The translations under genes were made by a program, and so were the position numbers. The notes beneath the pieces are model-generated. The model ran no database searches and was not told the origin of the DNA. It worked only from the letters and a program-made list of their open reading frames with translations. A stretch of DNA of 64,000 bases from a bacterium (GTDB lineage Bacteria > SZUA-182 > DTGQ01): the NCBI GenBank assembly GCA_040755755.1, contig JBFLZW010000031.1:64561-128560 (forward strand), read 5' to 3'. Below are positions 8,376 to 61,367 of this stretch, piece by piece. Position 1 is the first letter of the stretch, and each line of letters starts with the position of its first letter.

Positions 8376-8384
8376 GGAAGGGAA

Positions 8385-11300: not shown

Positions 11301-11714
11301 GGAAAGGACTTTGCGATCATCGATTTTGAAGGCGAGCCGGCCCGGTCGTTGAGCGAGCGGCGATTGAAAAGGTCCCCCCTGCGGGATATAGCCGGTATGC
11401 TCAGATCGCTCCACTATGCAGCCTATACCGCTCTCTTGAAAAAAGCGCTGATCAGGGCTGAAGACAGGGTACAGCTTGAGCCCTGGGCTGACCTGTGGTA
11501 CAAATATACGGGGGGTGCTTTCCTGAGATCGTATCTCGATACGGTCAAAGATGCACCCTTTATCCCCCGGGAAAAGAACGAGCTGCAGATCATGCTCAAT
11601 GCCTTTCTCCTCGATAAGGCAATTTACGAGGTCAGATATGAATTGAACAACCGGCCAGAATGGCTGGCCATTCCCTTGCGGGGGATAAAACACCTGCTGG
11701 AGGAAAACAAGTAG
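8385..11714 (+). CDS. treS: trehalose synthase / maltokinase fusion (TreS-Pep2)
   Basis: 1109 aa. The N-terminal GH13 part ([26 protein letters not shown]-like, [11 protein letters not shown]) fits TreS. The C-terminal kinase-like part ([17 protein letters not shown]) fits maltokinase. TTG start with GAGGAAGGGA upstream. Confidence 0.9.
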   Translation: [1109 protein letters not shown]

Positions 11715-11748
11715 CGGGGAGAAAAAATGAGAAAGGAGAGAGAGGGCG

Positions 11749-13671
11749 ATGGATATCGGGAGCCTTTTGACTGAGAATGATATTTACCTGTTCAGGGAAG
11801 GGAGCCACTTTCGGCTCTATGATAAGCTCGGCTCTCATCTGGTAACCGTTGACGGAGTCAGCGGAGCGTACTTTGCGGTCTGGGCTCCGAATGCCGAGGG
11901 GGTTACGGTGATGGGAAAATTTAATGGCTGGAACCCGGATTCCCATTCTCTGGCCTTGAGAATGGATGGCTCAGGGATCTGGGAGGGCTTTATTCCCGGT
12001 ATCGCTCATGGTGCTCCGTACAAGTATCATATCAGATCACGCTATCGGCATTACCGGGTCGATAAAGGAGACCCTTATGCCTTCCGCTGGGAGCCTGCGC
12101 CGGAAACAGCCTCGGTGGTCTGGGACCTCAAGTATGCATGGGGAGATGGCGAGTGGATGAAAAACCGCGCCGGGGCCAATGCCTTCAATGCACCCATGTC
12201 TATCTACGAGGTGCATCTTGGATCGTGGAGACGGGTTCCGGAAGAGGACGGGCGGTTTCTTACCTACCGGGAAATGGCTGAAAGCCTGGCTGATTACGTC
12301 GAGAAGATGGGTTTTACCCATGTCGAGTTTCTGCCGGTCATGGAGCATCCCTTCTATGGTTCCTGGGGATATCAGATCGTGGGCTTCTTTGCTCCGAGCA
12401 GCAGGTTCGGCACTCCGCAGGACTTCATGGCGATGGTCGATTACCTCCATCAGCGGGGGATAGGAGTTATCCTTGACTGGGTGCCTTCGCATTTTCCCGA
12501 TAATATCCAGGGGCTGGTCTTCTTTGACGGCACTCACCTGTACGAGCATGCAGACCCACGGAAAGGATTTCATCCCGAATGGAAGAGCTATATCTTTAAC
12601 TATGGCCGCCAGGAAGTCAGGGCATTCCTGATCAGTGCCGCACTCTTCTGGTTTGACAAGTATCATATCGACGGTCTCAGGGTGGATGCCGTAGCCTCCA
12701 TGCTCTACCTGGACTATGCGCGCAAATGGGGTGAATGGATCCCGAACGAATTCGGCGGCAAGGAGAATATCGAGGCCATCAGCTTCATCAAACGGCTGAA
12801 CGAGGCCATATACAGCGCATACCCCGATGTTCAGACCATTGCCGAAGAGTCGACCGCCTGGCCCATGGTTTCCCGTCCGACCTATATCGGCGGTCTGGGA
12901 TTTGGTCTGAAGTGGAATATGGGCTGGATGCACGATACCCTGTCCTACTTTTCCAAGGACGCCGTTTACCGCAAGTACCATCAGGGCCAGCTCACGTTCA
13001 GTATCTGGTACGCCTTCTGGGAAAATTTCGTGCTTCCTCTCTCCCACGATGAGGTGGTATACGGGAAAGGCTCGCTGATCGGGAAAATGCCGGGGGACGA
13101 CTGGCAGAAATTCGCCAACCTGCGGCTGTTATTCGGATATATGTATGGTCATCCGGGCAAGAAGCTTCTGTTCATGGGGGGAGAGTTTGCCCAGTGGCGG
13201 GAGTGGAACCACGATCTCAGCCTTGACTGGCACCTCCTCGAATATTTCCCTCATCAGGGAGTGCAAAAGTGGGTCGCGGACTTAAACCGCATGTATGCCA
13301 CTGAACCGGCCCTTCACGAGCTGGACTTTTCCAGTGAAGGATTCGAATGGGTGGATTTTCACGATGCCGAATCGAGCGTCATCAGCTTCATCAGAAAAGG
13401 GAAAACCACCGGCGACCTGATCATGGCAGTCTGCAATTTCACCCCCGTGCCCCGGGAAAACTACCGGCTGGGAGTGCCGTGGAGCGGCATCTGGAAAGAG
13501 ATCCTGAACAGCGATGCCAGGGTCTATGGCGGAAGCGGCCACGGAAACTTTGGCCAGGTTGAGGCCACACCGCTTCCTGCACACGGAAAAAGCTGCTCCC
13601 TATCCCTGCTCCTGCCTCCCCTGGGCATTATTTTCCTCAAGGGTGAGGAGAGTGAGAAATTTCAGTTGTAA
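11749..13671 (+). CDS. glgB: 1,4-alpha-glucan branching enzyme
   Basis: 640 aa with [35 protein letters not shown] and [10 protein letters not shown] motifs. Confidence 0.93.
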
Positions 13672-41587: not shown

Positions 41588-41673
41588 CCGGGGTGAGGGG
41601 CTTTCTCGGTACGTAGCCTAAAGCTATTGACATTGCCCACTGGGGCTCCCTGCAGGCTGCCCACACAAGGGGC

Positions 41674-41701
41674 AAGGGCAGGCACATGAATGCCTGCCCT
41701 T
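41674..41701. repeat. second REP-like hairpin
   Basis: AAGGGCAGGCA-CATGAA-TGCCTGCCCTT forms an 11-bp perfect stem. Confidence 0.55.
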
Positions 41702-41739
41702 CCAGGTGATAAAAATCATTACCCCCACATTGGCGCAGA

Positions 41740-42165
41740 TTAGATTCCAAGTGCCAGCAGGGTAGTGGTAGATGTGCTTCCTCCCAGGAGAAGAGCAGTA
41801 GCTATACCGATACTGGTAGAACTGGTGGTGTAGGTTGGATAGGAGTAAGTAGGTGTTGGAGTGGGCGTAGAATAGGTAGTATAGGGAGTATAGCTCGTAT
41901 AGGGAGTAGTGCTGTAAAGAGTGGTGGAGGAAGTGGGAAGTACGCCTAACAGGGCAAGTGTGGTCAATAGTGCCTGAGCACCCCGGTAAGGAATAAGCTC
42001 TGGAGGAACGGGAACATAGGGAGAATACCCAAAGGGGCTGTAAACATAGGTATAATAGGGACCGGAAGCACTGTAGTAGGCATCGGCAGTGGATACAAAA
42101 GCCGGGGAGGATATTAACACTACCATAAAAAGCCACAAAGCTGCTTTTCCAATTTTTGCTCTCAT
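41740..42165 (-). CDS. small exported/membrane Tyr-Thr-Ser-Pro-rich protein of unknown function
   Basis: 141 aa with an N-terminal signal-like segment (KAALWLFMVVLISSPAFVSTADA). By my count it has 17 Tyr and about 25 Thr and almost no charged residues. There are two further hydrophobic stretches. GAAAGGGA SD lies upstream of the ATG. No family was recognised. Confidence 0.55.
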   Translation of the reverse strand: MRAKIGKAALWLFMVVLISSPAFVSTADAYYSASGPYYTYVYSPFGYSPYVPVPPELIPYRGAQALLTTLALLGVLPTSSTTLYSTTPYTSYTPYTTYSTPTPTPTYSYPTYTTSSTSIGIATALLLGGSTSTTTLLALGI

Positions 42166-42714
42166 TGCGTTTCCCTTTCATAATCTTGAAGCTTTCCGAT
42201 TTGTTTTCTCATAAACCCTGACCTGCTTACCACGGGCAAAGCATAATAGCCATCTCTCACCCCCTTTGTGAACTCAGTGCGAACACTCTTCTCGCCGGAA
42301 AAATGAGAAAAACAGATGCATGAAAATAGCTGGAGAAGAAGTCGCTTAATTAAAGAGATTGTTAAAAAAGGCTGGGGAACTGGGGAGAAATAATTATTGT
42401 ATCGTATGAGCCGTTGAATGAATGAAAATATGTGTCTATTATATTGAGACGAATTTTTTTCGATTTCGTTATGGAACGGCCTTTGTTTAATTGAGAGGCT
42501 ATCTGAAAATCTCCCTCCAGATGAAGAACTGTACCTGCCGTCATCGAGAAGCTGGAGAAAAAGGTTAAAAACATCCGGCCTCAATGTCCTTTTTCCATTT
42601 CATCCAGTAAAATAACGCTGTAGGACCTAACAGTTTTAACTTATACTGAAATATGTTAAGGATTAATCTATTAATATATAATTAATCGTGGGCACATCTC
42701 CTTCCAGAATCAAA

Positions 42715-42753
42715 TTGACATTTATGCATAAATGATGCATACTTGTGCATATG
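42715..42753 (+). promoter_or_regulatory. vapBC promoter candidate with TGCAT-repeat operator, probably giving a leaderless mRNA
   Basis: TTGACA (42715-42720), a 17-nt spacer, then CATACT (42738-42743), with the ATG at 42751. The TATGCATA palindrome (42723-42730) and two further TGCAT copies (42736-40, 42746-50) overlap the promoter. Confidence 0.35.
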
Positions 42754-42948
42754 AGGACGACATTAAACATTGATGACAAAATTTTAGAGAAGGCTTCACT
42801 GTTAACAGGTGTAAAGGAAAAGACAGCCTTAGTGCGTCTTGGATTAGAGGCCCTTATAGCTCGTGAAAGCAGTAAGCGACTCGCAAGGCTGGGTGGCTCT
42901 GAAAAGAATCTTCGGCCTATTCCAAGACGAAGGTTTAAAGAATCATAA
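42751..42948 (+). CDS. vapB: VapB-type antitoxin (DUF2191/RHH-like)
   Basis: MRTTLNIDDKILEKASLLTGVKEKTALVRLGLEALIARESSKRLARLGGSE is the typical N-terminal MRTTLxIDDxL signature of this VapB family. It lies 2 nt before vapC. Confidence 0.8.
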   Translation: MRTTLNIDDKILEKASLLTGVKEKTALVRLGLEALIARESSKRLARLGGSEKNLRPIPRRRFKES

Positions 42949-42950
42949 TC

Positions 42951-43328
42951 ATGGTTATCGTCGATACTTCTCTTTGGGTTACCCACCTGAGAGAAGGCAA
43001 CAACCACCTTGAAGAATTGCTGCTGAATGGAGAAGTACTCTGTCATCCCTTCATCGTCGGTGAATTGGCGTGTGGGAACATCAAAAACAGAGTTGAATTA
43101 CTGACGCTTCTTCAATCACTTGAGATGGCTCCAACTGTCACCTTGGATGAACTATTGTATTTTATTGAGCGAAATAGATTAATGGGCAAAGGGGTCGGTT
43201 TTGTTGATGCACACCTATTAGCCTCAGCCCAATTAGCGGAAGTGCCCTTATGGACTTCTGATAAGAGATTGAAATCATCGGCAATTGACCTTAAAGTCGC
43301 CTATAAAGACGGGGCTGTTATATTCTGA
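42951..43328 (+). CDS. vapC: PIN-domain toxin VapC
   Basis: 125 aa. MVIVDTSLWV carries the first Asp, FIVGELACG the Glu, and GFVDAHLLASA the third Asp. WTSDKRL lies near the C-terminus. Confidence 0.88.
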   Translation: MVIVDTSLWVTHLREGNNHLEELLLNGEVLCHPFIVGELACGNIKNRVELLTLLQSLEMAPTVTLDELLYFIERNRLMGKGVGFVDAHLLASAQLAEVPLWTSDKRLKSSAIDLKVAYKDGAVIF

Positions 43329-43368: not shown

Positions 43369-44334
43369 TTAATGTTTCCAGAGCTTCTTCAAAATGGAAA
43401 GCGGGCCTTTGGTGTCTTTATTCTCAGGGGCATCCTTGTGCTGGTGTCCTTCCCCTTTTTGATCGGAGGAAGGGGAACCCGGACGCTCATTGGAGGAGGG
43501 CTTTGGTATTTCAGCCAGGCGGCCGCTGCCCAGAAAGCGAAACAGGGGCCCCAAGGGGCCGAGGGACAGCTCATCGCCGGGATTGAGCGGTGACTGAAGG
43601 TCGATGGGCTGCCGGTTGACCATAATCAATCGTTGTCCCGTGAGGTCCTTGACCCAGTAGCGATCCTGACTGTAGAAGACCTGGACATGCTGACCCTGGA
43701 TACCAGGATGGTCAAGCTGAAAATCGCAGCTTGCCTCTTTTCCCATGGTAACCGGCACCGCTTTGTATGAGCGCAGCGTAGGGCCATACTGGATAATGAG
43801 GGGGACTCTCACGTTGTGCACCACGACTTTGCCTGCTGCCTCGACAGGCTCAGGATGAAGGGGTGGGGGTTCGGGCTGGAGGAAGGGGTGCTCAGGCTCC
43901 AGCCGGGAAGATGAATCCGGTTCACTCTCCGGGGGATGATGCGGCGGTGAAGGCAGGGGGCCGCTTTGCTGCGGAGCCGGGAGAACGCTTTCTTTCCCGG
44001 CTTGGTTTTCCTGAATCTGGGTCAGGAAGCTGACCTTTGGCCCGCCTTCGGCAAAAGACAACACGTCTCCGTTCTTCAGGTACGCCTCTTCAACCACTCT
44101 CTTGCCGTTGACAAAGGTGCCATTGGTGCTGTGGTCTACCAATTTAAAGCGATTTCCGTCTCGGACTATTTCGGCATGGTTGCGGGAAATTATGGTCAGA
44201 TCCGCCGGGAACTTCAAATGACATGACTGGTGGCGGCCAATGGCAATCCTGGCTTCGGAAAACTCCTGAATTTCGCCCTTGAGAGGCCCTTGAATATGAA
44301 CGAGTTGAACGGTAATAACCGGCTGTTGCTTCAT
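43369..44334 (-). CDS. protein with two FHA domains separated by a Pro-rich linker
   Basis: FHA1 is IAIGRHQSCHLKF...ISRNHAEIVRDGNRFKLVDHSTNGTFVNG. FHA2 is VTMGKEASCDFQLDHPGIQGQHVQVFYSQDRYWVKDLTGQ. The linker is PLPSPPHHPPESEPD...PEPPPLHPEP. Confidence 0.85.
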   Translation of the reverse strand: MKQQPVITVQLVHIQGPLKGEIQEFSEARIAIGRHQSCHLKFPADLTIISRNHAEIVRDGNRFKLVDHSTNGTFVNGKRVVEEAYLKNGDVLSFAEGGPKVSFLTQIQENQAGKESVLPAPQQSGPLPSPPHHPPESEPDSSSRLEPEHPFLQPEPPPLHPEPVEAAGKVVVHNVRVPLIIQYGPTLRSYKAVPVTMGKEASCDFQLDHPGIQGQHVQVFYSQDRYWVKDLTGQRLIMVNRQPIDLQSPLNPGDELSLGPLGPLFRFLGSGRLAEIPKPSSNERPGSPSSDQKGEGHQHKDAPENKDTKGPLSILKKLWKH

Positions 44335-44414
44335 TGGGAATAAAAATTATCTGATGGTAAATGGTTTATCATCCTGTTTGCAGTCCAGAACTCAATTATA
44401 GCCTGAATCTCGCA

Positions 44415-44428
44415 TTTCTTGCAAGAAA
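44415..44428. promoter_or_regulatory. perfect 14-bp palindrome in the FHA / PP2C divergent spacer (candidate operator)
   Basis: TTTCTTGCAAGAAA at 44415-44428. A second 10-bp palindrome, TCTCATGAGA, sits at 44484-44493 just downstream of a TTGACT (44469-44474). Confidence 0.3.
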
Positions 44429-44521
44429 ATAATTATTTACAACCTGCCATAAGTTTACTAAAATAGGATTGACTTTTAACCTTTCTCATGAGAGGATCTA
44501 TAACCACCAAATTGAAAGGCG

Positions 44522-45250
44522 ATGCCTATGACAGTCTCATTTGGACAATCAGATCCTGGCCTCAGACGCTCGAATAATGAAGATGCTTTCATCATCATAT
44601 CCGAAGCGGACCTTCTGGCAGTGGCCGATGGAATGGGCGGGGCAGCGGCTGGTGAGGTGGCCAGCCGGATATTTATTGAATCCGCCTCGGCACTTTCCGG
44701 CGGTGCGAAGTGTCAATCCGAGCAGGAAGCCCTTGTCAGGGTCCAGGATATCTTCAGATCAGCCAATGAAAAAATTATTAACCATGCCAGGCAGAACCCT
44801 CAGTGCCGGGGAATGGGGTGTACCGCCGAAGTCATTGTCTTCACCAGCCAGGGTTATGTTCTTGGCCATGTAGGAGACAGCCGCACCTATCTGCTGCGAG
44901 CGGGACAACTGAAACGATTGACGCATGATCACTCTGTGGTCCAGGAGCAGATCGACCAGGGCCTCATCACGCCAGAGGATGCCAGAAAACATCCCCTCAA
45001 AAGTGTTATCCTCAGAGCTGTAGGTGTCAACGAACAGTTGGCCCTTGACCTGATACGGGATAAAACCGTTCCCGGCGACCTTTTTCTCCTCTGCTCCGAC
45101 GGTCTGACAGATATGATTGACGATTCCTTCATCAAGGATATCCTTTCCCGTCCCCTGACTCTTTCTCAAAAGGGAACCCAGTTAATCGAGGCTGCCAAAT
45201 CAGCCGGGGGGTATGACAACGTAACGGTAGTTCTCGGTGAAGTAAAGTGA
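44522..45250 (+). CDS. PP2C-family Ser/Thr protein phosphatase
   Basis: 242 aa with RRSNNEDAF, VADGMGG, HVGDSR, LCSDGL and GGYDNVT motifs. All metal-binding Asp positions are present. Confidence 0.9.
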   Translation: MPMTVSFGQSDPGLRRSNNEDAFIIISEADLLAVADGMGGAAAGEVASRIFIESASALSGGAKCQSEQEALVRVQDIFRSANEKIINHARQNPQCRGMGCTAEVIVFTSQGYVLGHVGDSRTYLLRAGQLKRLTHDHSVVQEQIDQGLITPEDARKHPLKSVILRAVGVNEQLALDLIRDKTVPGDLFLLCSDGLTDMIDDSFIKDILSRPLTLSQKGTQLIEAAKSAGGYDNVTVVLGEVK

Positions 45251-45256
45251 TTGACC

Positions 45257-46204
45257 ATGAGCAAGTTCACTCGGGCGTGGATGGTCCTGGCCGTTGCCGC
45301 TGTCACGGTTTTTCTGCTGTTTGCGTTTGCCGGGGCTGGAAGCGCGGACGTGGAGTTCAGATCGTATCCTTTTCCTCTGCCGGAGGTGGAGGATGTCATT
45401 TCACGATGGCTGCACAGCAACGGCTTTGAGATCGTCCGTGCTTGCCGGGAAGGGGGCCAGGTCCACCTGGGAGCGATGAAAGAAGGCGAGCGCTGGCAGA
45501 TCATGCTCAAGCCCCGCTCTCCCCTGGCCTCGGAGGTCCAGGCCGAATACTTCCGGCAGGGGCAGCCCGATCAGGCGCTCCAGAAAGAACTATGGGCCCA
45601 TCTGCAAAGATATGCCCGGAATCCTGCTGCCGAACAAGAGGATTACGGTGTCCCCTCCCCGGTTTTGGCCCACAGTGAATCGGTGGTCTGCATCAAAGCC
45701 GAGCGGGGAGGAAAACCGATTCAGTTCTCCGGTTTCATTATTGACCGGGAGGGGTTAATATTAGGAACAGCCCATGACCTTGAAGGGATCCAGGAGGTCA
45801 GGGTTATTCTCGATAACGGCCATGAGCTGAACGGACAACTATGCAGGGCCGATCATGACCGGGATTTGGCTCTTATTGCCGTCAAGACCAGGTTCGATGC
45901 CTGCATTTCTCTTTCCCGGGGACGAAACCTCCTGAGCATGGGTGAAAAGGTGTTTTCGATCGGATGTCCCGTCAATCTGCAGGGAACGGTCCATGCCGGT
46001 TTCATCGACGGCCCTCCGAGGAAGGTGAATACTCTGCTCCTGTGGCAGGTGAATATGGAAGTCCTGCCGGGAAGCAGCGGCAGCCCGGTGTTTGATACCC
46101 AGGGAAACGTGGTGGCTGTTGTCAAGGGCAGATACCGCGGCACGGATTCAGTGGGCTTTCTGATCCCAATGGAGACGATCAGAGAATTTATGGGACAAAA
46201 ATAG
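45257..46204 (+). CDS. secreted trypsin-like (S1) serine protease with an uncharacterised N-terminal domain
   Basis: Signal peptide FTRAWMVLAVAAVTVFLLFAFAGAGSA. The triad context is GTAHDL (His), DRDLALI (Asp) and GSSGSPVF (Ser). The roughly 110-aa N-terminal domain was not recognised. Confidence 0.8.
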   Translation: MSKFTRAWMVLAVAAVTVFLLFAFAGAGSADVEFRSYPFPLPEVEDVISRWLHSNGFEIVRACREGGQVHLGAMKEGERWQIMLKPRSPLASEVQAEYFRQGQPDQALQKELWAHLQRYARNPAAEQEDYGVPSPVLAHSESVVCIKAERGGKPIQFSGFIIDREGLILGTAHDLEGIQEVRVILDNGHELNGQLCRADHDRDLALIAVKTRFDACISLSRGRNLLSMGEKVFSIGCPVNLQGTVHAGFIDGPPRKVNTLLLWQVNMEVLPGSSGSPVFDTQGNVVAVVKGRYRGTDSVGFLIPMETIREFMGQK

Positions 46205-46217
46205 GACGGAAGTTAGC

Positions 46218-47450
46218 ATGTTATTACAGTATGGACGGTATCAGATCGAAAATGAGCTTGGCAAGGGAGCTATGGGGGTGGTCTACCGGGCCCATGATCC
46301 CCGGATTGACCGGTCAGTCGCTTTGAAGGTCCTGCGTCCGGACCGGGTCACCAACGAGGATTTCGTCCAGCGGTTCCTCAAGGAGGCTAAAGCGATTGGC
46401 AGGCTTTCGCATCCCAATATCGTTACTGTCTATGACGTCGGGCAGGATCAGGACACGATCTTTATTGCCATGGAATTTCTCGATGGCAAACCTCTTCATA
46501 CGATCTTGCAGGAAGCAAAACCGGATATTGGCACCATCGTCGATCTTGGCATCCAGGTAGCCTGTGCCCTCGATTATGCCCACCAGAAGGGAATCGTTCA
46601 CCGGGATATCAAGCCCGGCAATATTATTGTCCAGCCCGATGGCCGGGTGAAAATAACCGACTTCGGAATTGCCCATATCGAAGATTCCTCGGCCACGCAG
46701 CAGACCAGGGCGGGAGAGATTCTCGGCAGCCCGGCTTATATGTCCCCCGAACAGGTGATGGGCCAGCCGGTGGACGGACGCTCAGATCTGTATTCGCTGG
46801 GCGTTGTCCTCTACGAGCTGTGCGCCGGGAAGCGGCCCTTCCAGGAAGATAACCTGGCCGCTCTTTTCAGGGCCATTACTCAGGATAATCCCCCTGAACT
46901 GTCAGCTCTCGACCCGGCAATCCCCCCCCTGCTTTCGCAGACAATCGTAAAGTGCCTGAGCAAGCAGCCGGAGAAACGCTTTCAGACCGGCCTTGCCCTG
47001 GCCGATGCCCTGAAGACCTGCCTGAAGAAGACAAAAGCCGCCCCGACCGGACAGGATCGGCCAAAGGGCAGGTTCCTGGTGCTCCTGATCGCGGTTTTCC
47101 TGATCAGTATCACGGCGGGGATTTTGGTCTATTTCTTCGGCTCAGCCAGGGATGATCGTCTTCCTCCTCCTTCTCCTCCTCCGTCGGTTACGGAGCAGCA
47201 ACCGCCGCCGACTGGAGAAGCGCCTCCGGTGATTGCTTTTCTCAAGGTCGAAAGTACGCCCGTCGGTGCCCAGATTTTCGTGGATGGAACCCTGCACGGG
47301 AAAACGCCTGCCCGGCTTGAGCTTGCGCCCGGAAAACATGAGGTCCGGCTGACTTTGCCCGCTTATTTTGACTGGGAAGCCCAGGTTCAGTTACCCGAAA
47401 AGGTCGAGACCCCTCTCCTGGTCCGGCTGATGCCGACCGAGGAGGAGTAG
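46218..47450 (+). CDS. transmembrane Ser/Thr protein kinase with extracytoplasmic PEGA domain
   Basis: Hanks kinase motifs GKGAMGVVY, ALK, HRDIKPGNI, DFG and SPAYMSPE. A TM segment (FLVLLIAVFLISITAGILVYFF) and Pro-rich linker follow. The PEGA-like domain is LKVESTPVGAQIFVDGTLHGKTPARLELAPGKHEVRL. Confidence 0.9.
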   Translation: MLLQYGRYQIENELGKGAMGVVYRAHDPRIDRSVALKVLRPDRVTNEDFVQRFLKEAKAIGRLSHPNIVTVYDVGQDQDTIFIAMEFLDGKPLHTILQEAKPDIGTIVDLGIQVACALDYAHQKGIVHRDIKPGNIIVQPDGRVKITDFGIAHIEDSSATQQTRAGEILGSPAYMSPEQVMGQPVDGRSDLYSLGVVLYELCAGKRPFQEDNLAALFRAITQDNPPELSALDPAIPPLLSQTIVKCLSKQPEKRFQTGLALADALKTCLKKTKAAPTGQDRPKGRFLVLLIAVFLISITAGILVYFFGSARDDRLPPPSPPPSVTEQQPPPTGEAPPVIAFLKVESTPVGAQIFVDGTLHGKTPARLELAPGKHEVRLTLPAYFDWEAQVQLPEKVETPLLVRLMPTEEE

Positions 47451-47541
47451 TGGTCAGTGGTCAGTGATCAGTGGTTAGTGGCTGGAATCCAGAAGTCAGG
47501 AGAAAAACAGCCCTTATTCTGACTCCTGACTCCTGAATTCT
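47449..47541. repeat. heptanucleotide tandem-repeat array forming a hairpin (kinase / redoxin-TPR spacer)
   Basis: AGTGGTC AGTGGTC AGTGATC AGTGGTT AGTGGCT GGAATCC AGAAGTC AGGAGAA occupy 47449-47504, followed by a loop. The complementary units GACTCCT GACTCCT GAATTCT occupy 47521-47541. The 18-bp stem 47485-47502 / 47523-47540 has 2 mismatches. Confidence 0.75.
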
Positions 47542-47561
47542 TTAAAAAAAAGGAGTGTCAG

Positions 47562-49556
47562 ATGAAGATTACCCGAAAATGCCGTGCCGTCAGTTTGATC
47601 CTCACCCTTGGTTTTTTCCTCTCGGGAATGGGCGTAAGCTATGGCCAGATCGCACCCGGCCAGTCCGCTCCGCTCTTTTCCCTGAAGGATATCGCCGGAA
47701 AATCCCATGACCTGGCCCAGATGAAAAATCAGCCCATGATTATTCTCTACTTCTTCGATGCAGAATCGAGGCCGAGCCAGGAAGGAATCGTAAGCCTGAA
47801 TCAATTGGCCAGACAATACAAGGGCTATGACCTGACCACCCTGGCCATTACCCTCTCTCCGCGGGCCAAGATCGATCAGTTCAGGAAGCAGACCGACCTA
47901 GGGTTTCCCATCATCCAGGACCAGTCCGGGATCAGCGACCGGTATCAGGCCCGGCAGATACTGCCCACGGTCTGCATTATCGGGCCGGGTCTTCGCGTTC
48001 TCGACCATTTTCAGGGCGGAGGCAAAACCACCGAAGTGATGCTGGTCAGGCTGGCCGAGAGGGAATTACAGAGAAAACAGACCACGCTGGCTAAAGCCAT
48101 CAGCGCCGAGGTGGTAAAAAAGAACCCTCACAATACCAGGGCCAAAACAGTGGCTGGTTATGCAGCCCTCAGGGAGGGGAACCTCAAGCAGGCGCAGGAG
48201 GTTTTCCAGAACCTGGCCAAAGACAGCGGACAGGCAGAGGTACTTGGCAAAGAAGGGCTGGCCGCCGTTCATGTCCAGAAGGGAGAGGCGGCCAGAGCCC
48301 TTGAGCTGGCCAGAGAGATAGAGCACAAAGCTCCTGAAAGATCCTATGTCCATGTCATCAAGGGAGATATTCTCGCCAGTCAGGATAAAAAGCAGGAGGC
48401 CGAGGCGGAATATCAGAAAGCGATAGCCAAGAAGGATGCCGAGCCGTACCAGGAAGCGGTCAGGCATAACCAGCTTGGCCGGTTGTATGCAAGCAGCGGA
48501 CAGTATCAAAAGGCGCGTGAGCTTTACGACCAGGCGGTGGCCATCGATCCTTATTACATCGAGGGGACGACCAACAAGGGGATAACCTACCAGAAAGAAG
48601 GCAATTGGGATAAAGCCCTGGAATCCTTTCAGCAGGCCGTCACCCTTGACAAGGGCGATACCTTTGCGGTTGTCCTGGCCAAAAAAGCCCAGGAGATGCT
48701 GGAGTTCCAGAAAGACAACGAGCGTAAAAAACGGGTTGACCAACTGGTGAAAGACCTGGCCGAGCGGTACCGCAGTCAGGAGAAGTCCAGGCCAAAGGAT
48801 GAAGATACCTGGACCTCCCGGCCCATGATTATCTCCTTTGTCGATTTTCAGGAAAAAGGCGGCCTGGCCGAGCGGGATGGCTTCTCGACCGTGATGACCA
48901 GCCAGTTAAGCGATTCCCTGACCGCCTCGAACCGGGTCCAGGTGGTGGAGCGGGTGCTGATCGAGCGTCTCATGGAGGAGTTGAACCTTGGTTCTTCGGA
49001 TCTGGCTGATCAGGAAACTGCGCTCAAGCTTGGCCGGGTACTGGCCGCCAAACTGATCGGCACCGGATCCCTCTTTTACCTGCCCAACGGGACGCTCCTG
49101 AATCTCAGGCTCATCGACAGCGAAACCTCAGCCATCCCTTTGGTGATCACCCGGCAAATCAGCCCCCAGGCATCTCTGGAAAAAGAGCTTTACGCCCTCA
49201 ACCGGCAGATATTAAGGACAGTCATGGAAAAGTATCCCCTGCACGGGTATCTGGTTGAAGTCACAGGAGATCAGGCCCTGGTTAACCTCGGCTCCCGCCA
49301 GGGAGTGGTTCAGGGGACACGGTTTGAAGTGCTGGAAGAAGGCAAGCCGATCACCTACAAGGGGAAGACGCTCCAGAGCTCACCAAAAATCATCGCCCAG
49401 GCCGAGGTTGTCCGGGTTGAGCCTGACCTGTGCCATATCCGGATCATCAGCCAGGAAAGACCCCTGAAAACCGATGACAAGGTCCAGGAGAGAATCGCGG
49501 AAGCGGTCCTGGGAGAAGGCAGCGAAGAAGGTAGTGGAAGCAGGGATCATGAATAG
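47562..49556 (+). CDS. exported multidomain protein: cysteine-less thioredoxin-fold (TlpA/AhpC-like) + TPR + CsgG-like domain + C-terminal beta-rich domain
   Basis: 664 aa with a signal peptide. The redoxin-like N-domain (PGQSAPLFSLKDIAGKSHDL...MIILYFFDAESRPSQEG) has no Cys at the active-site position. TPR repeats follow (AIDPYYIEG, AVTLDKGD). The CsgG-like segment is SRPMIISFVDFQEKGG...VQVVERVLIERLMEELNLGSSDLAD..LRLIDSETS. Confidence 0.7.
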   Translation: MKITRKCRAVSLILTLGFFLSGMGVSYGQIAPGQSAPLFSLKDIAGKSHDLAQMKNQPMIILYFFDAESRPSQEGIVSLNQLARQYKGYDLTTLAITLSPRAKIDQFRKQTDLGFPIIQDQSGISDRYQARQILPTVCIIGPGLRVLDHFQGGGKTTEVMLVRLAERELQRKQTTLAKAISAEVVKKNPHNTRAKTVAGYAALREGNLKQAQEVFQNLAKDSGQAEVLGKEGLAAVHVQKGEAARALELAREIEHKAPERSYVHVIKGDILASQDKKQEAEAEYQKAIAKKDAEPYQEAVRHNQLGRLYASSGQYQKARELYDQAVAIDPYYIEGTTNKGITYQKEGNWDKALESFQQAVTLDKGDTFAVVLAKKAQEMLEFQKDNERKKRVDQLVKDLAERYRSQEKSRPKDEDTWTSRPMIISFVDFQEKGGLAERDGFSTVMTSQLSDSLTASNRVQVVERVLIERLMEELNLGSSDLADQETALKLGRVLAAKLIGTGSLFYLPNGTLLNLRLIDSETSAIPLVITRQISPQASLEKELYALNRQILRTVMEKYPLHGYLVEVTGDQALVNLGSRQGVVQGTRFEVLEEGKPITYKGKTLQSSPKIIAQAEVVRVEPDLCHIRIISQERPLKTDDKVQERIAEAVLGEGSEEGSGSRDHE

Positions 49557-50082
49557 AAGAGCATGGCTGACAGGTCTTATCCTGGTTGGATTTTTTTGCG
49601 CCTCCTGCACGTTGCGTCAATCCCTGCCCCTTGGGCAGGGCACAGCGATGGAAAAGGATACTGCAATTGAAAAGGGTGCTGCGGTAGCTGTCTGGGATTT
49701 CGATAACTTGAGCCCATCTGCCGAAGGCCAGCCGCCTTCACTGGGAGAGCTTCTCTCCGCTCAGGTTATGGAATCGCTCCAGTCTCGCGGGGATGTAACG
49801 GTCATCGAGCGGCAGCGGCTGCACCTGGCCCTTGAGGAGCTTAAATTGGGATCGACCTCACTGGCGGATGAGGCCACACGGTTAAAGCTCGGCCATCTGG
49901 TGGGAGCCCGGCTGATGGTTTTTGGAGCCTACCAGGCGATCGCCGGCACCATGCGCCTCGACCTGCGGCTGGTCGAAGTGGAAACCGGCAAGGTGCGTAA
50001 TGCTGTCAAAGGAACGGCTTCGAGCGGGGATATGGCCGAATGGCTGAAGACCGCCAGGGAAGCCGCGGCAGGGCTGCTGTAG
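49549..50082 (+). CDS. putative lipoprotein with CsgG-like domain
   Basis: MNRRAWLTGLILVGFFCASC is an imperfect lipobox. VAVWDFDNLS...VTVIERQRLHLALEELKLGSTSLAD..LRLVEVETGKV is clearly paralogous to the C-terminal part of the upstream protein. The ATG overlaps the upstream stop by 8 nt. I prefer this start over the listed 49474. Confidence 0.6.
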   Translation: MNRRAWLTGLILVGFFCASCTLRQSLPLGQGTAMEKDTAIEKGAAVAVWDFDNLSPSAEGQPPSLGELLSAQVMESLQSRGDVTVIERQRLHLALEELKLGSTSLADEATRLKLGHLVGARLMVFGAYQAIAGTMRLDLRLVEVETGKVRNAVKGTASSGDMAEWLKTAREAAAGLL

Positions 50083-50107: not shown

Positions 50108-50401
50108 TCAGGGATGAGAAGTTATTGCAATGATGGTAATTTGACCTGCATCAGGACCATAATACCAAAAGACCCTATATGCCGCAGGAGTGGATTGTTC
50201 AGCATAAGCTTCAAAGACTTTTTCTTTTTCGGGTCCTTTTAAGCTGGTGAATTCATGGGTTTCAAGACTTTTATGTCTTGGATTTTCAGCTAATAAATGG
50301 ACAGTCCTGGTTACTGCCTTGTACCTTTTTTCGAGTCCCTTGTCAGTTTTAAGCCTCTCTAATTGCTTTTTTGCCTGATCAGTAAGGAAGATTTCAAACA
50401 A
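50108..50401 (-). CDS. RelE/ParE-superfamily toxin
   Basis: 97 aa. The pattern of helical N-terminus (LTDQAKKQLERL), then HEFTSLKG...AYRVFWYYGPDAGQITIIAITSHP, fits RelE/ParE-like toxins. TTG start 12 nt after the antitoxin stop. Confidence 0.65.
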   Translation of the reverse strand: MFEIFLTDQAKKQLERLKTDKGLEKRYKAVTRTVHLLAENPRHKSLETHEFTSLKGPEKEKVFEAYAEQSTPAAYRVFWYYGPDAGQITIIAITSHP

Positions 50402-50412
50402 AACTGGCTATC

Positions 50413-50694
50413 CTAAAATTCATCAAGATTAAGTTTCGATATCTTGCCCTCGGATGCATCCTTTAAGCCGTCCATAACACTTTCAAGGGCTTCTTTATTT
50501 TGAAAAAGCCAAACCTCTGAAGCTGGAATTTCTGCTATAGGTTGTAAGAGAATCTCTCCCCGGTTATTTTTATATAGTCTGACTCTTTTATAACCCTTCA
50601 AAAGATCACCCAGAGTAATTCGTGTTCTGTCGTCAATTGTTTTAGTATCAACCTCTTGAAATTCATCATTAATCTGCAGGGTATTATTTTTCAT
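50413..50694 (-). CDS. AbrB/SpoVT-like antitoxin
   Basis: The start at M17 (50694, AGGAGG upstream) gives 93 aa. RTRITLGDLLKGYKRVRLYKNNRGEILLQP is swapped-hairpin-like, and the tail is acidic. Confidence 0.6.
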   Translation of the reverse strand: MKNNTLQINDEFQEVDTKTIDDRTRITLGDLLKGYKRVRLYKNNRGEILLQPIAEIPASEVWLFQNKEALESVMDGLKDASEGKISKLNLDEF

Positions 50695-50851
50695 AGTATC
50701 ACCTCCTGAACAGAATATACTATAATTCCCATATTGGGTCAATGGGCAATTCTATTCCTCCAGCAATTCTAATTATGAACTTTTATGGACAATTTAACCT
50801 CACATCTTTCGGGATTGGATAGAGGTTTATAGCGGTTCCCGGTTGAGTGGA

Positions 50852-51223
50852 CTACCTGATAGTAGTATAACCAGATAGAATAGAATGGCACTGAGAAGCT
50901 GTCTGAAAAATACCAAGGCTTGATTGTCTGATTTTATTCACTACCGGAGAGAAGAAGGTCTCAATCCGAAATCGTTTCCTGTACCAGTTGCAGGCATCTT
51001 GTGTCGATTCAACATTGGTGACCAGAGAGATGGGCTCTTTGTAGTCCTTCTCCCACCAGAGGATAGCATGAACAGGACCATAGGCTTGGTTGGTGAAAAA
51101 GACACCTGGCAGACTCACAGGCTTTTGTCCCTGGGGGACAAAGATCTTGCCCAGAGGAGAGCTTTTTGTCTCCCTTAAAGAGCACACTGCTTTTGCCCGG
51201 GCGACAGGCATACTGCCAGCCAT
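50852..51223 (-). pseudogene. C-terminal fragment of an IS4/IS701-like DDE transposase
   Basis: ...WWEKDYKEPISLVTNVESTQDACNWYRKRFRIETFFS matches the conserved YxxRWxIE region of IS4-type transposases. Homology breaks off at about 50940, where the reading frame runs into the 33-bp repeat. No N-terminal catalytic region and no IRs were seen. Confidence 0.6.
50892..50924. repeat. 33-bp direct repeat, copy 1
   Basis: TGAGAAGCTGTCTGAAAAATACCAAGGCTTGAT is identical to 53815-53847 except for two A/G differences. Confidence 0.8.
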
Positions 51224-51282: not shown

Positions 51283-51690
51283 TTAAGGAACTAAATAAGG
51301 GGACTCAGGTCGTGGCCTGAGTTTTCCTTCCTTGCAGTCAACGATCAGGTCGAGTTCCTCCAAAATGGTCTGGCCGAGCAGACCTTCGCTCCCCGGAGGA
51401 CCGACCACACAATTAACCGGCGTGATTCTGTTTTCAACCCTGACCATAGCCACTCCAGCCACTTCTCTTTCCTCTTTCCGTTCATCCGCGTAGGTGACGA
51501 TGACCTTATCCAGCCTTTTCAGGCCGAGTTGCTCCACCAGGTCCTGGGGCAGGACGAGCATTGTTGAGCCGCTATCGACCAGCACCCTGACCCTTTCCCT
51601 GCGGATCTCCTCTATTTTCCTGAGATTGTGCTCATATAATACCCTATCGTCGTAATTCTCAATCTCAAGCTCAACGATGACTTCACCCAT
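51283..51690 (-). CDS. retropepsin-like (clan AA) aspartic protease, single-domain
   Basis: 135 aa. VLVDSGSTMLVLP carries the D-S/T-G active-site motif. LLGQTILEELDLIVD resembles the C-terminal hydrophobic-hydrophobic-Gly region of retropepsins. No signal peptide or TM segment. Confidence 0.75.
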   Translation of the reverse strand: MGEVIVELEIENYDDRVLYEHNLRKIEEIRRERVRVLVDSGSTMLVLPQDLVEQLGLKRLDKVIVTYADERKEEREVAGVAMVRVENRITPVNCVVGPPGSEGLLGQTILEELDLIVDCKEGKLRPRPESPYLVP

Positions 51691-54485: not shown

Positions 54486-54557
54486 AGCCGGCGATGGGAT
54501 TCGAACCCGCGGCCTGCTGATTACGAATCAGCTGCTCTACCCCTGAGCTACGCCGGC
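54486..54557 (-). tRNA. tRNA-Thr (anticodon CGU)
   Basis: The minus strand reads GCCGGCG TA GCTC AGGGGTA GAGC A GCTGA TTCGTAA TCAGC AGGCC GCGGG TTCGAAT CCCAT CGCCGGC T. It folds as a cloverleaf with a 7-bp acceptor stem and a GTTCGAAT T-loop. The T-stem has one C-A mismatch and one G-U pair. CCA is not encoded. Confidence 0.88.
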
Positions 54558-59189: not shown

Positions 59190-61367
59190 CTAGTTATGGC
59201 TGTAATTGGAAACCTGCATCCGGAAGCGGCAGGTCCATCCCTCCCCTGCGGCTAAGTTGATATCCCAGTAGGGAAGGATAACCGAGCTCTGATAAACTCT
59301 TTCAAACCCTGATTCAGAATTTGAGGCGGTTTCGATCGGGAATCTCCAGATGCCGGGGTAGTCAGCAAAATCGAAAGAGACAATCAGACCAAGGGCTTCA
59401 TCCACCAGTTGAATCTGCTCGACCTGCTCCAGGGTTCCCCAACTGGCCAGTTGCCGATCCTTGAGGGCAATGCCGGGTACTTGATAATACCTGTCCGCAC
59501 TTCGTCCGGCCAGAAGGTTCACATTGAATTCTACTCCGAATCGGCATCGAACGGTCGATTTCCCTAAATTGACCAGTTGATACTCGAAAGCTAATTCCGA
59601 TTTATCTGCCTGAACCCTCACCGCTTTTTCAACGCGGAATGGGATATGCTCTCCATCGATCAGCAGGGAACCATCCCGGGAAAGAATAAGGTGGAGCATG
59701 TCCTGAGTCGATTGAAGTTGCTGTTTCTGGTAATTTCCGGTAATAAAATCCCCATATTCCTGATGTTGTAACCGGCTGAACTCCTTGAGTGTGGTGACAG
59801 GAGGGAAGAAATGATCGAGCAGGCAGTTGCGGGCATATTGATCATAATAAAGCAGCTCAGCCAGATCCTTTTCCTTGCTGACCGTAATCTCATGGATGCT
59901 CTTTACCCCATAGCTGTCATCCTGATCCACTCCTATGTGTGCTCCCTGCTGCAGTTTCTGGTGATACGTTTCCCGTCTGCGCATGAGAGAGTTGATCAGG
60001 TTAAAGGCTTTTGGCCGGTAGTCCAGTTCGTTGATCGTGCCCCCTGCGTCCATGTCAAGCCAGAACATCAGACTGGATGTTTTGACCAGGATTTCCTCTC
60101 TTCCGTCGCCATCCATGTCCACTGGCAGGCAATCGATCCAGCTCTCCGTCGGATGAAGCCGCTCATCGATGATGTTCTCTGCCTTGATCAGGTGATTATA
60201 GACTCCATCCCGCAAATGCGGGAGGTAGAGCCCGCCAAAAAGGCCGTGCCAGTAAGCATCATTGCATTGGCCTTTCCAGAGCTCATCCCGTGCCCGATCC
60301 AGCCATTGCTGAGAAGAATCCGCGGATGCCCCTTTACTCTGATACTGTTCGATCTGCTTACTCACCCAGAGCATTTTCTGATAGAGGTTGTTGCTCTCCG
60401 AATACTTGCTCAAAAAGTTGCGCCAGAAACCTCCCTTGACAAAGGGTTTGGCTCTCTGAGGGAACTCTTTGGTATTACTGATCATTCTTTCCAGAGCAAT
60501 AAATTCCTCCGCCGTCTGGATCGGCAGTGCCCACTCCTCCATCTCCGAATACGAGGCGGTCGGCAAATAAACTTTTCCCAGCGGAGGAAACTTGTCCACA
60601 TATTCGCCGTAAGTTATTGTTTCAAGAACATCCTGATTTTCTTCAACCAGGCTGAAGAACTGATCCAGCCAGCCCTGATTATAAACCAGATCATAGGTAC
60701 CCGGCCAGACACCGAATTTTTCTCCGTCATCGGCCATAACCCGCAGATTCCCCCTCCCCCGGTTTTCATGCAGCAGATAATCGATCGTCATCCGGGGGGA
60801 TTTAAATGGAATCGTATATCGCAGATACTTGCTGCCGGGGAAGACTTTCAGCAGGTTTCCCTGCTCCTCGGTAAGGTAATAACCCCACAGTTCCTCTTCA
60901 CGAATGCCGGCGGATCGAAAATGCAGGTCATCTACCGCCAGATACTCAATTTCAGCCTCTCGAATGTAGCGCACCAGATGCGGCTCCCACACCCGCTCGG
61001 CCAGCCACATGCCCCTCGGTGTGGTATGAAAGCGTTCTTTGAGAAACCGGTTCAATTTTTTAATCTGGCCAACCTTATCCACATCCGGGAGAATCGGTAA
61101 AATCGGTTCATAATAGCCGCCGCTCAATAATTCTACCTGTCCCCGCTCGATCATGTCAGCCACGATATCCAAAAGAGGAGAGGATTTTTCCAAAAACCAG
61201 TTCCAGAGTGTTCCTGAATAGTGGAGACTTATCTTGATTCCGGGATGTCTTTTCAACACCTCCCAAAAGGGAAAATATGCTTTCTGGTAACATCCTTCGA
61301 AAACAAAATCAAAGTTTCCTATCGGCTGGTGATTATGAATTCCCAAAATAAGGTATTGTTTTTCCAA
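59190..61367 (-). CDS. GH57-family alpha-glucan-active enzyme (4-alpha-glucanotransferase/amylopullulanase-like) with DUF1925/1926-type C-terminal region
   Basis: 725 aa. The N-terminus LILGIHNHQPIGNF carries the GH57 HQP motif. SGGYYEPILP, WLAERVWEP and DDGEKFG (catalytic region) are also present. Confidence 0.88.
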   Translation of the reverse strand: MEKQYLILGIHNHQPIGNFDFVFEGCYQKAYFPFWEVLKRHPGIKISLHYSGTLWNWFLEKSSPLLDIVADMIERGQVELLSGGYYEPILPILPDVDKVGQIKKLNRFLKERFHTTPRGMWLAERVWEPHLVRYIREAEIEYLAVDDLHFRSAGIREEELWGYYLTEEQGNLLKVFPGSKYLRYTIPFKSPRMTIDYLLHENRGRGNLRVMADDGEKFGVWPGTYDLVYNQGWLDQFFSLVEENQDVLETITYGEYVDKFPPLGKVYLPTASYSEMEEWALPIQTAEEFIALERMISNTKEFPQRAKPFVKGGFWRNFLSKYSESNNLYQKMLWVSKQIEQYQSKGASADSSQQWLDRARDELWKGQCNDAYWHGLFGGLYLPHLRDGVYNHLIKAENIIDERLHPTESWIDCLPVDMDGDGREEILVKTSSLMFWLDMDAGGTINELDYRPKAFNLINSLMRRRETYHQKLQQGAHIGVDQDDSYGVKSIHEITVSKEKDLAELLYYDQYARNCLLDHFFPPVTTLKEFSRLQHQEYGDFITGNYQKQQLQSTQDMLHLILSRDGSLLIDGEHIPFRVEKAVRVQADKSELAFEYQLVNLGKSTVRCRFGVEFNVNLLAGRSADRYYQVPGIALKDRQLASWGTLEQVEQIQLVDEALGLIVSFDFADYPGIWRFPIETASNSESGFERVYQSSVILPYWDINLAAGEGWTCRFRMQVSNYSHN

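Follow-up and report, generated by a model that had tools for sequence, protein, structure and literature searches.

To our knowledge, when and where a type VI secretion system (T6SS) fires is understood in only a few Proteobacteria, each lineage of which plugs different envelope sensors into a core of PpkA, PppA and Fha. The pathways of Pseudomonas aeruginosa, Serratia, Agrobacterium and Acidovorax share the logic of a kinase-FHA switch for T6SS, and in both the RtkS-PpkA-PppA-Fha axis of Serratia marcescens and the TssW-PpkA-Fha axis of Acidovorax citrulli lineage-specific accessory proteins of the periplasm or outer membrane act on a conserved core of PpkA and Fha, by which T6SS assembly is positioned or initiated (PMC10482370, PMC12607579). 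Here we describe a six-gene cluster at positions 43369-50082 of a 64,000-nucleotide stretch of bacterial DNA (positions 64,561 to 128,560 of contig JBFLZW010000031.1, assembly GCA_040755755.1; hereafter the window), which encodes a two-FHA protein, a PP2C phosphatase, an exported S1 protease, a Hanks-type kinase with a PEGA ectodomain, a 664-aa exported protein and a 177-aa lipoprotein. On balance we judge this module to be a T6SS threonine-phosphorylation switch equipped with a previously undescribed sensor arm, a reading that we hold as probable rather than secure. It would then represent a widespread alternative sensor arm, for which we found no description; it is spread over hundreds of sequence clusters among anaerobic Desulfobacterota and reaches a metagenome-assembled genome (MAG) affiliated with Nitrospirota.

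Similar to the P. aeruginosa H1-T6SS with its TagQRST-PpkA-PppA-Fha1 pathway, the module combines an FHA protein and a PP2C phosphatase with a membrane-bound Hanks kinase that has a periplasmic domain, it encodes an outer-membrane lipoprotein and periplasmic accessories in the same operon, and in its relatives T6SS core genes adjoin it. A first-pass annotation of this DNA had proposed the TagQRST-PpkA-PppA-Fha logic carried out with different parts, and those relatives, which physically join the module to T6SS genes, bear this comparison out. Profile searches against Pfam and NCBIfam likewise upheld the domain calls that it had made for all six products (two FHA domains, PP2C, S1 protease, transmembrane kinase with PEGA, redoxin-like/TPR/CsgG-like protein and CsgG-like lipoprotein), and when each protein was aligned with 36-61 orthologues taken from related loci, the key residues of phosphatase, protease and kinase proved invariant, as expected from its description of their catalytic motifs as intact.

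The two-FHA gene (43369-44334, minus strand) encodes a cytoplasmic protein of 321 aa without hydrophobic segments, in which a Pro-rich linker separates two FHA domains (Pfam FHA 8e-33). The first of these, FHA1, is canonical, with G33, R34, S50, R51, H53 and N71 invariant in 36 orthologues, and the second is degenerate in the same alignment, in which its Arg position is occupied by Lys, Arg or Thr and its Ser position varies. Since the conserved Arg and Ser positions are lost, FHA2 is probably not a phosphothreonine reader; the protein as a whole is likely a phosphothreonine reader or scaffold with a role similar to that of Fha/TagH. Its top NCBIfam match is TIGR03354 VI_FHA, at 86.8 bits against a cut-off of 120.25, and in contrast to Fha1/TagH it has two FHA domains and no TagH C-terminal (T6SS_FHA_C) domain, the latter being found as a separate gene in two of the related loci (L002 and L060). 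The phosphatase gene (44522-45250, plus strand) encodes a cytoplasmic protein of 242 aa that matches PP2C_2 (6e-16) and PP2C in Pfam and Stp1/IreP in NCBIfam (239.7 bits, over the cut-off of 230). All 45 orthologues keep D21, D36, G37, D119, D193, D232 and N233, among them the metal-binding Asp residues, and a role like that of PppA/TagG is predicted.

The kinase gene (46218-47450, plus strand) follows the protease gene after a gap of 13 nucleotides and encodes 410 aa. Its catalytic domain (Pkinase 1.5e-54) retains K37, E56, H128-R129-D130, N135, D148-F149-G150 and the activation-loop T163, all invariant among orthologues, and its hydrophobicity profile shows a single transmembrane helix at 282-311, ahead of the C-terminal PEGA ectodomain (residues 342-407, 2e-14); the protein also has a Pro-rich linker. 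From this architecture we predict a PpkA/TagE-like role, although the ectodomain of PpkA is a von Willebrand A domain whereas that of the module kinase is PEGA. The operon also differs from TagQRST in that it has neither an ABC transporter pair similar to TagS/TagT nor a TagR-type protein, nor any further gene for a periplasmic sensor, a distinction drawn from family calls; in their place stand the S1 protease, a dead-thioredoxin/TPR/FlgT-like protein and lipoproteins of the CsgG/LpoB fold. Compared by description with the RtkS and TssW axes, the module has four to six envelope proteins, not one. A search of the literature returned no PEGA kinase paired with a T6SS, and PEGA, CsgG, protease and TPR all go unmentioned in a 2026 review of T6SS accessory factors; a search for T6SS in Syntrophaceae, Smithella or Desulfobacteraceae gave nothing relevant. 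These checks agree with the earlier statement that the combination is undescribed.

The protease gene (45257-46204, plus strand) encodes an exported serine protease of the trypsin fold (Trypsin_2 1.6e-18) that has an HtrA-like core and no PDZ domain, its chain stopping about 40 residues past the catalytic Ser. We take its start to be the ATG at 45257, which leaves a 6-nucleotide gap after the phosphatase gene, the mechanically called open reading frame (ORF) beginning earlier, with a TTG at 45251. A hydrophobic N-terminus (residues 3-32) provides a signal or anchor, the N-terminal region of about 120 aa is poorly conserved, and H173, D203 and S274 are invariant in 61/61 orthologues. Like HtrA/DegS-type proteases it is a trypsin-fold periplasmic enzyme with an intact His-Asp-Ser triad, encoded together with a transmembrane signalling protein; however, in addition to the missing PDZ domain and its distinct N-terminal region, the HtrA, DegP and DegS models of NCBIfam cover its core only, and all scores to the HtrA family (DegQ included) stay below 82 bits against cut-offs of at least 400. 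It forms a discrete family of its own, with about 141 representatives of 50%-identity clusters at E<=1e-30, nearly all of 300-330 aa. The presence of a protease in the module suggests that T6SS gating may involve proteolysis.

Next to the kinase gene, after a gap of 111 nucleotides, lies the gene for the 664-aa protein (47562-49556, plus strand), which begins with a hydrophobic segment at residues 7-27, a predicted signal peptide, and has Pfam matches to AhpC-TSA (4e-12), TPR repeats and CsgG (1.2e-5), as well as a faint match to FlgT_C. In an alignment of its redoxin domain with ResA, S69-R70-P71-S72 takes the place of C-E-P-C, so that the first-pass description of an inactive redoxin was correct; S69, P71 and S72 are invariant in 18 homologues, and the thioredoxin/ResA-like domain is, on the strength of these alignments, a conserved redox-dead fold. 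Its C-terminus is a FlgT-like unit, made up of an alpha/beta domain of the TolB-N/CsgG/PelC/LpoB type followed by a small beta-barrel, and fold comparison placed it closest to the FlgT-like protein of the flagellar LPHT ring (12.8), followed by the TolB N-domain (11.7), CsgG (10.0), PelC (9.9) and LpoB (8.9). The 177-aa lipoprotein, whose gene (49549-50082, plus strand) overlaps that of the 664-aa protein by 8 nucleotides, matches CsgG in Pfam (6.5e-13, model positions 10-97 of 210), LpoB (1.2e-5) and also FlgO, and its lipobox Cys20 is invariant. It shares 36-42% identity with residues ~424-505 of the 664-aa protein, to the C-terminal part of which it is paralogous.

These matches raise the possibility of a curli-like or Pel-like export system, in which the CsgG/PelC-like proteins would assemble into a channel or funnel in the outer membrane that exports a polymer or the protease under control of the kinase. 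We regard this as very improbable. The CsgG matches of both the 664-aa protein and the lipoprotein span only positions ~10-98 of the 210 in the model, which correspond to the periplasmic alpha/beta domain, the FlgT-like and TolB-N structures fit better, and no csgA/B/E/F, pel, glycosyltransferase or polymer synthase genes are found in the window or the conserved neighbourhood. Moreover, identity to FlgT/FlgO/FlgP, PelC, CsgG, LpoB and the TolB N-domain is only 5-15%, no transmembrane hairpins of CsgG were detected, the context is not that of flagellar, Pel or curli genes, and according to the Pfam matches the fusion of TPR and dead thioredoxin is not a feature of these families. A channel of the curli or Pel type was rejected on the grounds of domain coverage and fold matches. 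Because the Pfam matches are confined to this part of the model, the CsgG-like calls of the earlier annotation hold at the level of the alpha/beta domain, which is indeed duplicated in two paralogs, and nothing points to a channel of the CsgG type: what is CsgG-like here is the periplasmic alpha/beta domain of many outer-membrane-proximal, often ring-forming lipoproteins, and domain calls of CsgG in such proteins should not be taken as curli channels. That the periplasmic proteins have a fold seen in outer-membrane lipoproteins that form rings or scaffolds (FlgT, TolB-N, CsgG, PelC, LpoB) favours a T6SS switch, in which they too might build a ring or scaffold; the site-marking or sensing role of TagQ or TssW fits such a fold (PMC10482370, PMC12607579).

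To follow the module beyond the window we fetched 9 loci from species genomes and 80 from metagenomes, the synteny set comprising 97 loci (numbered L002, L003 and so on), with duplicates set aside for counts. Presence is given as the number of non-redundant loci with the gene in the expected order and orientation among those with enough sequence to contain it. For the 664-aa protein at least 847 homologues were found, of which the best 120 are all full length, 63-100% identical, named just 'tetratricopeptide repeat protein' and derived from MAGs of Desulfobacterota, Deltaproteobacteria or Thermodesulfobacteriota. Named sources of the loci are Syntrophaceae, Smithella/Smithellaceae, Syntrophobacteraceae, Desulfobacteraceae, unclassified Deltaproteobacteria MAGs and one Thermodesulfovibrionia MAG. 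The lipoprotein gene follows that of the 664-aa protein in 70/70 loci, and the kinase gene is present in 56/62, the protease gene in 50/54, the PP2C gene in 39/51 and the FHA gene in 29/43. Co-conservation of the six genes beyond close relatives, on which the first-pass annotation had staked its proposal, was therefore found across Desulfobacterota and in the Thermodesulfovibrionia MAG. However, not all six genes are universal: the nearly invariant core consists of the genes for protease, kinase, 664-aa protein and lipoprotein, those for FHA and PP2C, though frequent, are dispensable in some variants, and most relatives hold a further convergent pair after the lipoprotein gene. This pair encodes a protein of ~400 aa (OMP400, 31/46 loci), possibly an outer-membrane barrel given its faint MipA-like match, and a CsgG-like/TPR lipoprotein of ~300 aa (CsgG300, 27/40 loci), as for example at L003:12477-14751 (minus strand). 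It looks like part of the full module that is missing from the window copy, as no such pair occurs anywhere in the 64 kb. In L024 and L025, an inserted gene for an 867-aa Ig-like/CARDB protein separates FHA from PP2C.

The link to type VI secretion comes from these relatives. A T6SS marker lies within 10 kb in 16 of the 36 non-redundant loci of at least 12 kb. The closest relative (L002/L014), with an 83% identical 664-aa protein, carries downstream of FHA and on the same strand genes for a 733-aa protein, a T6SS_FHA_C protein, TssJ and TssK, and in L060 the same series continues into TssL (DotU) and TssM (IcmF_N). The 733-835-aa protein (L002:2606-4807, minus strand; L060:13957-16464, plus strand) is without a Pfam match and heads the TssJ-K-L-M operon together with the separate small T6SS_FHA_C protein, and the domains of TagH seem to be split over several genes in the L002/L060 lineage. 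Elsewhere the module stands beside VgrG, DUF2169 and PAAR-like genes (L011), DUF2169-pentapeptide, DUF3540 and Tox-PAAR-like genes (L080 and L049) or a DUF4280 gene (L067 and L084), and in L095/L098 a complete locus, consisting of TssM, TagF, TssA, TssB, TssC, Hcp, TssE, TssF, TssG, ClpV, VgrG and PAAR, extends up to the FHA gene.

Another feature with no counterpart in the H1-T6SS is a fused TssB-TssC paralog of ~521 aa that often comes after FHA, being co-oriented with it in 13/26 loci with room. The fusion matches both VipA and VipB in Pfam, and TssC1 (1.4e-17) and TssB (2e-6) by phmmer, and belongs to a family of at least 303 members of uniform size. When look-ups were started from homologues of the fusion, 3/3 ended beside the module. 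In L098 it occurs alongside separate canonical TssB and TssC genes and is thus an extra paralog there. A search of the literature found no report of a natural TssB-TssC fusion. Module, fusion and ClpV are found directly on one contig in L095/L098, and they appear, judged from matching sizes, to occur together on three large contigs (87,880, 112,781 and 197,245 bases). The 733/835-aa protein was also considered as a divergent version of the fusion and rejected, as BLASTP gave no similarity and there was no Pfam match. A conserved trio of small proteins of ~241, ~258 and ~270 aa, the largest of which weakly matches a CxxCxxCC motif, is encoded between a T6SS PAAR gene and the fusion (L095:11626-14007, minus strand; also L003, L004, L008, L029, L039, L045, L049 and L077).

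Several observations weigh against control of T6SS. The FHA protein falls below the TagH family cut-off and is without the C-terminal domain of TagH; 20 of the 36 long related loci have no T6SS marker within 10 kb; five loci (L053, L056, L057, L076 and L077) keep the four-gene core with no adjacent FHA or PP2C; the 64-kb window contains no T6SS gene, TssB-TssC fusion or OMP400/CsgG300 pair; and every carrier is an uncultivated MAG or metagenome contig. In addition, polysaccharide deacetylase, LysM-TPR, sCache-cyclase, second TPR kinase and FHA-GAF-HisKA neighbours recur, which hints at broader envelope signalling. Some of these points would be expected if the module were a free-standing phospho-relay for envelope surveillance or homeostasis, in which the PEGA kinase and its periplasmic partners watch the outer membrane or peptidoglycan, the targets are unrelated to T6SS, and proximity to T6SS genes is incidental or secondary. 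Such a relay would also account for a four-gene core that is better conserved than FHA, PP2C or any T6SS neighbour, for the loci with no marker nearby, for the recurrence of polysaccharide deacetylase, LysM-TPR protein and Mla genes as neighbours, and for a window copy that is intact with no T6SS genes near it. We nevertheless find it rather unlikely, considering that a marker rate of 16/36 within 10 kb is far over chance for genes that fill well under 1% of a genome, that in half of cases a sheath paralog runs in the same direction as FHA, and that module, fusion and ClpV share a contig directly in L095/L098 and apparently on the three further large contigs. A free-standing relay whose output lies elsewhere, the interpretation first put forward for this cluster, is therefore less likely than T6SS control.

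As to the neighbours themselves, a block upstream of FHA in L011, L020, L035, L038, L008, L010 and L091 encodes a ~160-aa protein, an sCache-adenylate/guanylate cyclase, a polysaccharide deacetylase and a LysM/TPR protein, and is often extended by a gene for either an FHA-GAF-HisKA protein or a second Ser/Thr kinase, one that contains TPRs.

If the module is a T6SS switch, its cytoplasmic half of Hanks kinase, PP2C and FHA protein would be homologous in kind to PpkA/TagE, PppA/TagG and Fha/TagH, and its periplasmic half, namely the PEGA ectodomain, the PDZ-less S1 protease, the 664-aa protein and the lipoprotein, would take the place of TagQRST or RtkS; most relatives would add to the latter an outer-membrane protein and a third lipoprotein of the TolB-N/CsgG/PelC type. 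We envisage that an envelope cue is sensed by the periplasmic and outer-membrane-proximal proteins, possibly via proteolysis, and turns the kinase on, which would then phosphorylate a threonine of a cytoplasmic target. Binding of this phosphothreonine by FHA1 might promote or position T6SS assembly, and PP2C would reset the switch. In the known pathway, it is kinase-dependent Thr phosphorylation of Fha or TssL that triggers assembly. For the module, gene content, catalytic residues, topology signals, co-conservation and linkage to T6SS genes in relatives are shown, and the direction of signalling, the kinase substrate, the part played by the protease and any ring or scaffold are inferred. A more specific version, which we put forward only tentatively, treats module and fusion as a distinct way of gating a contractile machine: a protease-containing periplasmic sensor with ring-type lipoproteins would act through the PEGA kinase and the two-FHA protein on a dedicated sheath-like protein, whose effect on the canonical TssBC sheath would be to nucleate, cap or poison it, and where no T6SS is nearby an envelope response independent of T6SS would have taken over the sensor-kinase core. 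Under either version, proteins that are now labelled just 'tetratricopeptide repeat protein', 'trypsin-like peptidase' or 'sheath large subunit' acquire a functional context.

In the window itself the module is intact and no T6SS gene lies within the 64 kb, so that its target is either encoded elsewhere in the genome or lost. The six ORFs, their coordinates, the 6- and 13-nucleotide gaps and the 8-nucleotide overlap were all as first annotated. A Pfam scan of the other large ORFs, together with tblastn using T6SS probes, agrees with the earlier report of no secretion or cell-wall synthesis genes in the window, neither search finding a T6SS, type IV pilus, curli or cell-wall synthase cluster there. 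With probes for TssJ/K/L/M, VgrG, ClpV, TssG, PAAR-type proteins, the TssB-TssC fusion, OMP400 and CsgG300, tblastn of the window returned nothing at E<=1 except the AAA domain of Lon against ClpV, and the idea of T6SS remnants within it was dropped. The FHA gene and the PP2C operon diverge from a spacer of 187 nucleotides (44335-44521), which contains two back-to-back matches to the sigma-70 consensus, which are consensus matches only, at 44436-44464 on the plus strand (TTTACA-17-TAAAAT) and at 44424-44395 on the minus strand (TTGCAA-18-TATAAT).

The borders of the cluster invite the question of whether the window holds a stranded remnant, that is, a module separated from its T6SS by rearrangement, or left behind when the T6SS was lost, and now idle or drifting. 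Directly past the 3' end of the FHA gene lies a VapB-VapC (PIN) toxin-antitoxin pair (42745-43328, plus strand; VapB_antitoxin 5e-16, PIN 1e-8), exactly at the site where relatives (L002, L003, L060 and L098) have the TssB-TssC fusion or the T6SS membrane-complex genes TssJ-K. On the other side, two small ORFs and a 123-aa ORF (50108-51223, minus strand) stand where most relatives have the convergent OMP400/CsgG300 pair; one of the small ORFs is weakly ParE-like (ParE_toxin 0.007, under the cut-off) and the others have no Pfam match. Further out, the cluster is flanked by housekeeping genes, with hrcA-grpE-rsmE to one side and sufC-sufBD to the other. All three observations speak for a remnant, and the right-border region may be a rearrangement scar. 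This remnant reading is nonetheless improbable in our view, as the six ORFs are all full length, every catalytic, phosphothreonine-binding and lipobox residue that was checked is kept, and so is the operon spacing. We regard the cluster in the window as an orphaned copy of the module, which gives no evidence of a new stand-alone system. The 123-aa ORF contains WYRKRFRIETFF, which we take to resemble the YxxRxxxE signature of IS4-type transposases. An RNA element or integration site at the cluster was also considered; an Rfam scan of the whole window gave no sign of either, its sole match being tRNA-Thr at 54486-54557, with no tRNA at the cluster borders.

Two further comparisons concern clusters with similar cytoplasmic parts. 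Like the actinobacterial FhaA/FhaB-PstP-RodA-PbpA-PknA/PknB cluster, the module groups two FHA domains (here in one protein), a PP2C phosphatase and a Hanks kinase, and the first-pass annotation had offered that cell-wall cluster as an analogy. The analogy finds no support, however, as the kinase ectodomain is PEGA and PASTA, RodA/FtsW (SEDS) and penicillin-binding protein genes are all absent from the cluster and its conserved neighbourhood, on which grounds a cell-wall cluster of the actinobacterial type was rejected, and as the module has diderm hosts, periplasmic partners and, in relatives, T6SS neighbours. The second comparison is with anti-phage defence built on a Ser/Thr kinase, similar to PD-T4-6 or MADS. 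PADLOC models of PD-T4-6 match the module kinase with values of up to 1e-102, the mad6 model and the NCBIfam MAD6 model match as well, and toxin-antitoxin genes flank the cluster. Yet the PADLOC matches are confined to the generic Hanks catalytic domain (residues 4-280), and we therefore rejected phage defence; PADLOC gave no match for the FHA protein or the lipoprotein and only weak or generic ones for the protease, PP2C and 664-aa protein, and the membrane and periplasmic architecture with its T6SS neighbours is unlike known defence kinases, so that we consider a defence system hardly credible.

In the Pfam scan, the remaining large ORFs of the window were all housekeeping genes (glycogen/GlgE pathway, Lon, selA/selB, FtsEX, transketolase, hrcA-grpE, Suf and PTS). 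To the left of the VapBC pair, overlapping ORFs at 41624-42584 (minus strand) have no family match; among them, a 141-aa ORF at 41740-42165 has a start similar to a signal peptide and a body rich in Tyr, Thr, Pro and Ser, and the public gene call picks an overlapping frame of 185 aa instead. Between the right border of the cluster and sufC lies a stand-alone ORF for a retropepsin-like aspartyl protease (51283-51690, minus strand; Asp_protease_2, 5e-11). Genes of the alpha-glucan GlgE pathway, encoding GlgE, a 1109-aa fusion of TreS-maltokinase type and a branching enzyme, occupy 6384-13671 (plus strand) and, together with a GH57 enzyme at 59190-61367, belong to ordinary metabolism unrelated to the cluster.

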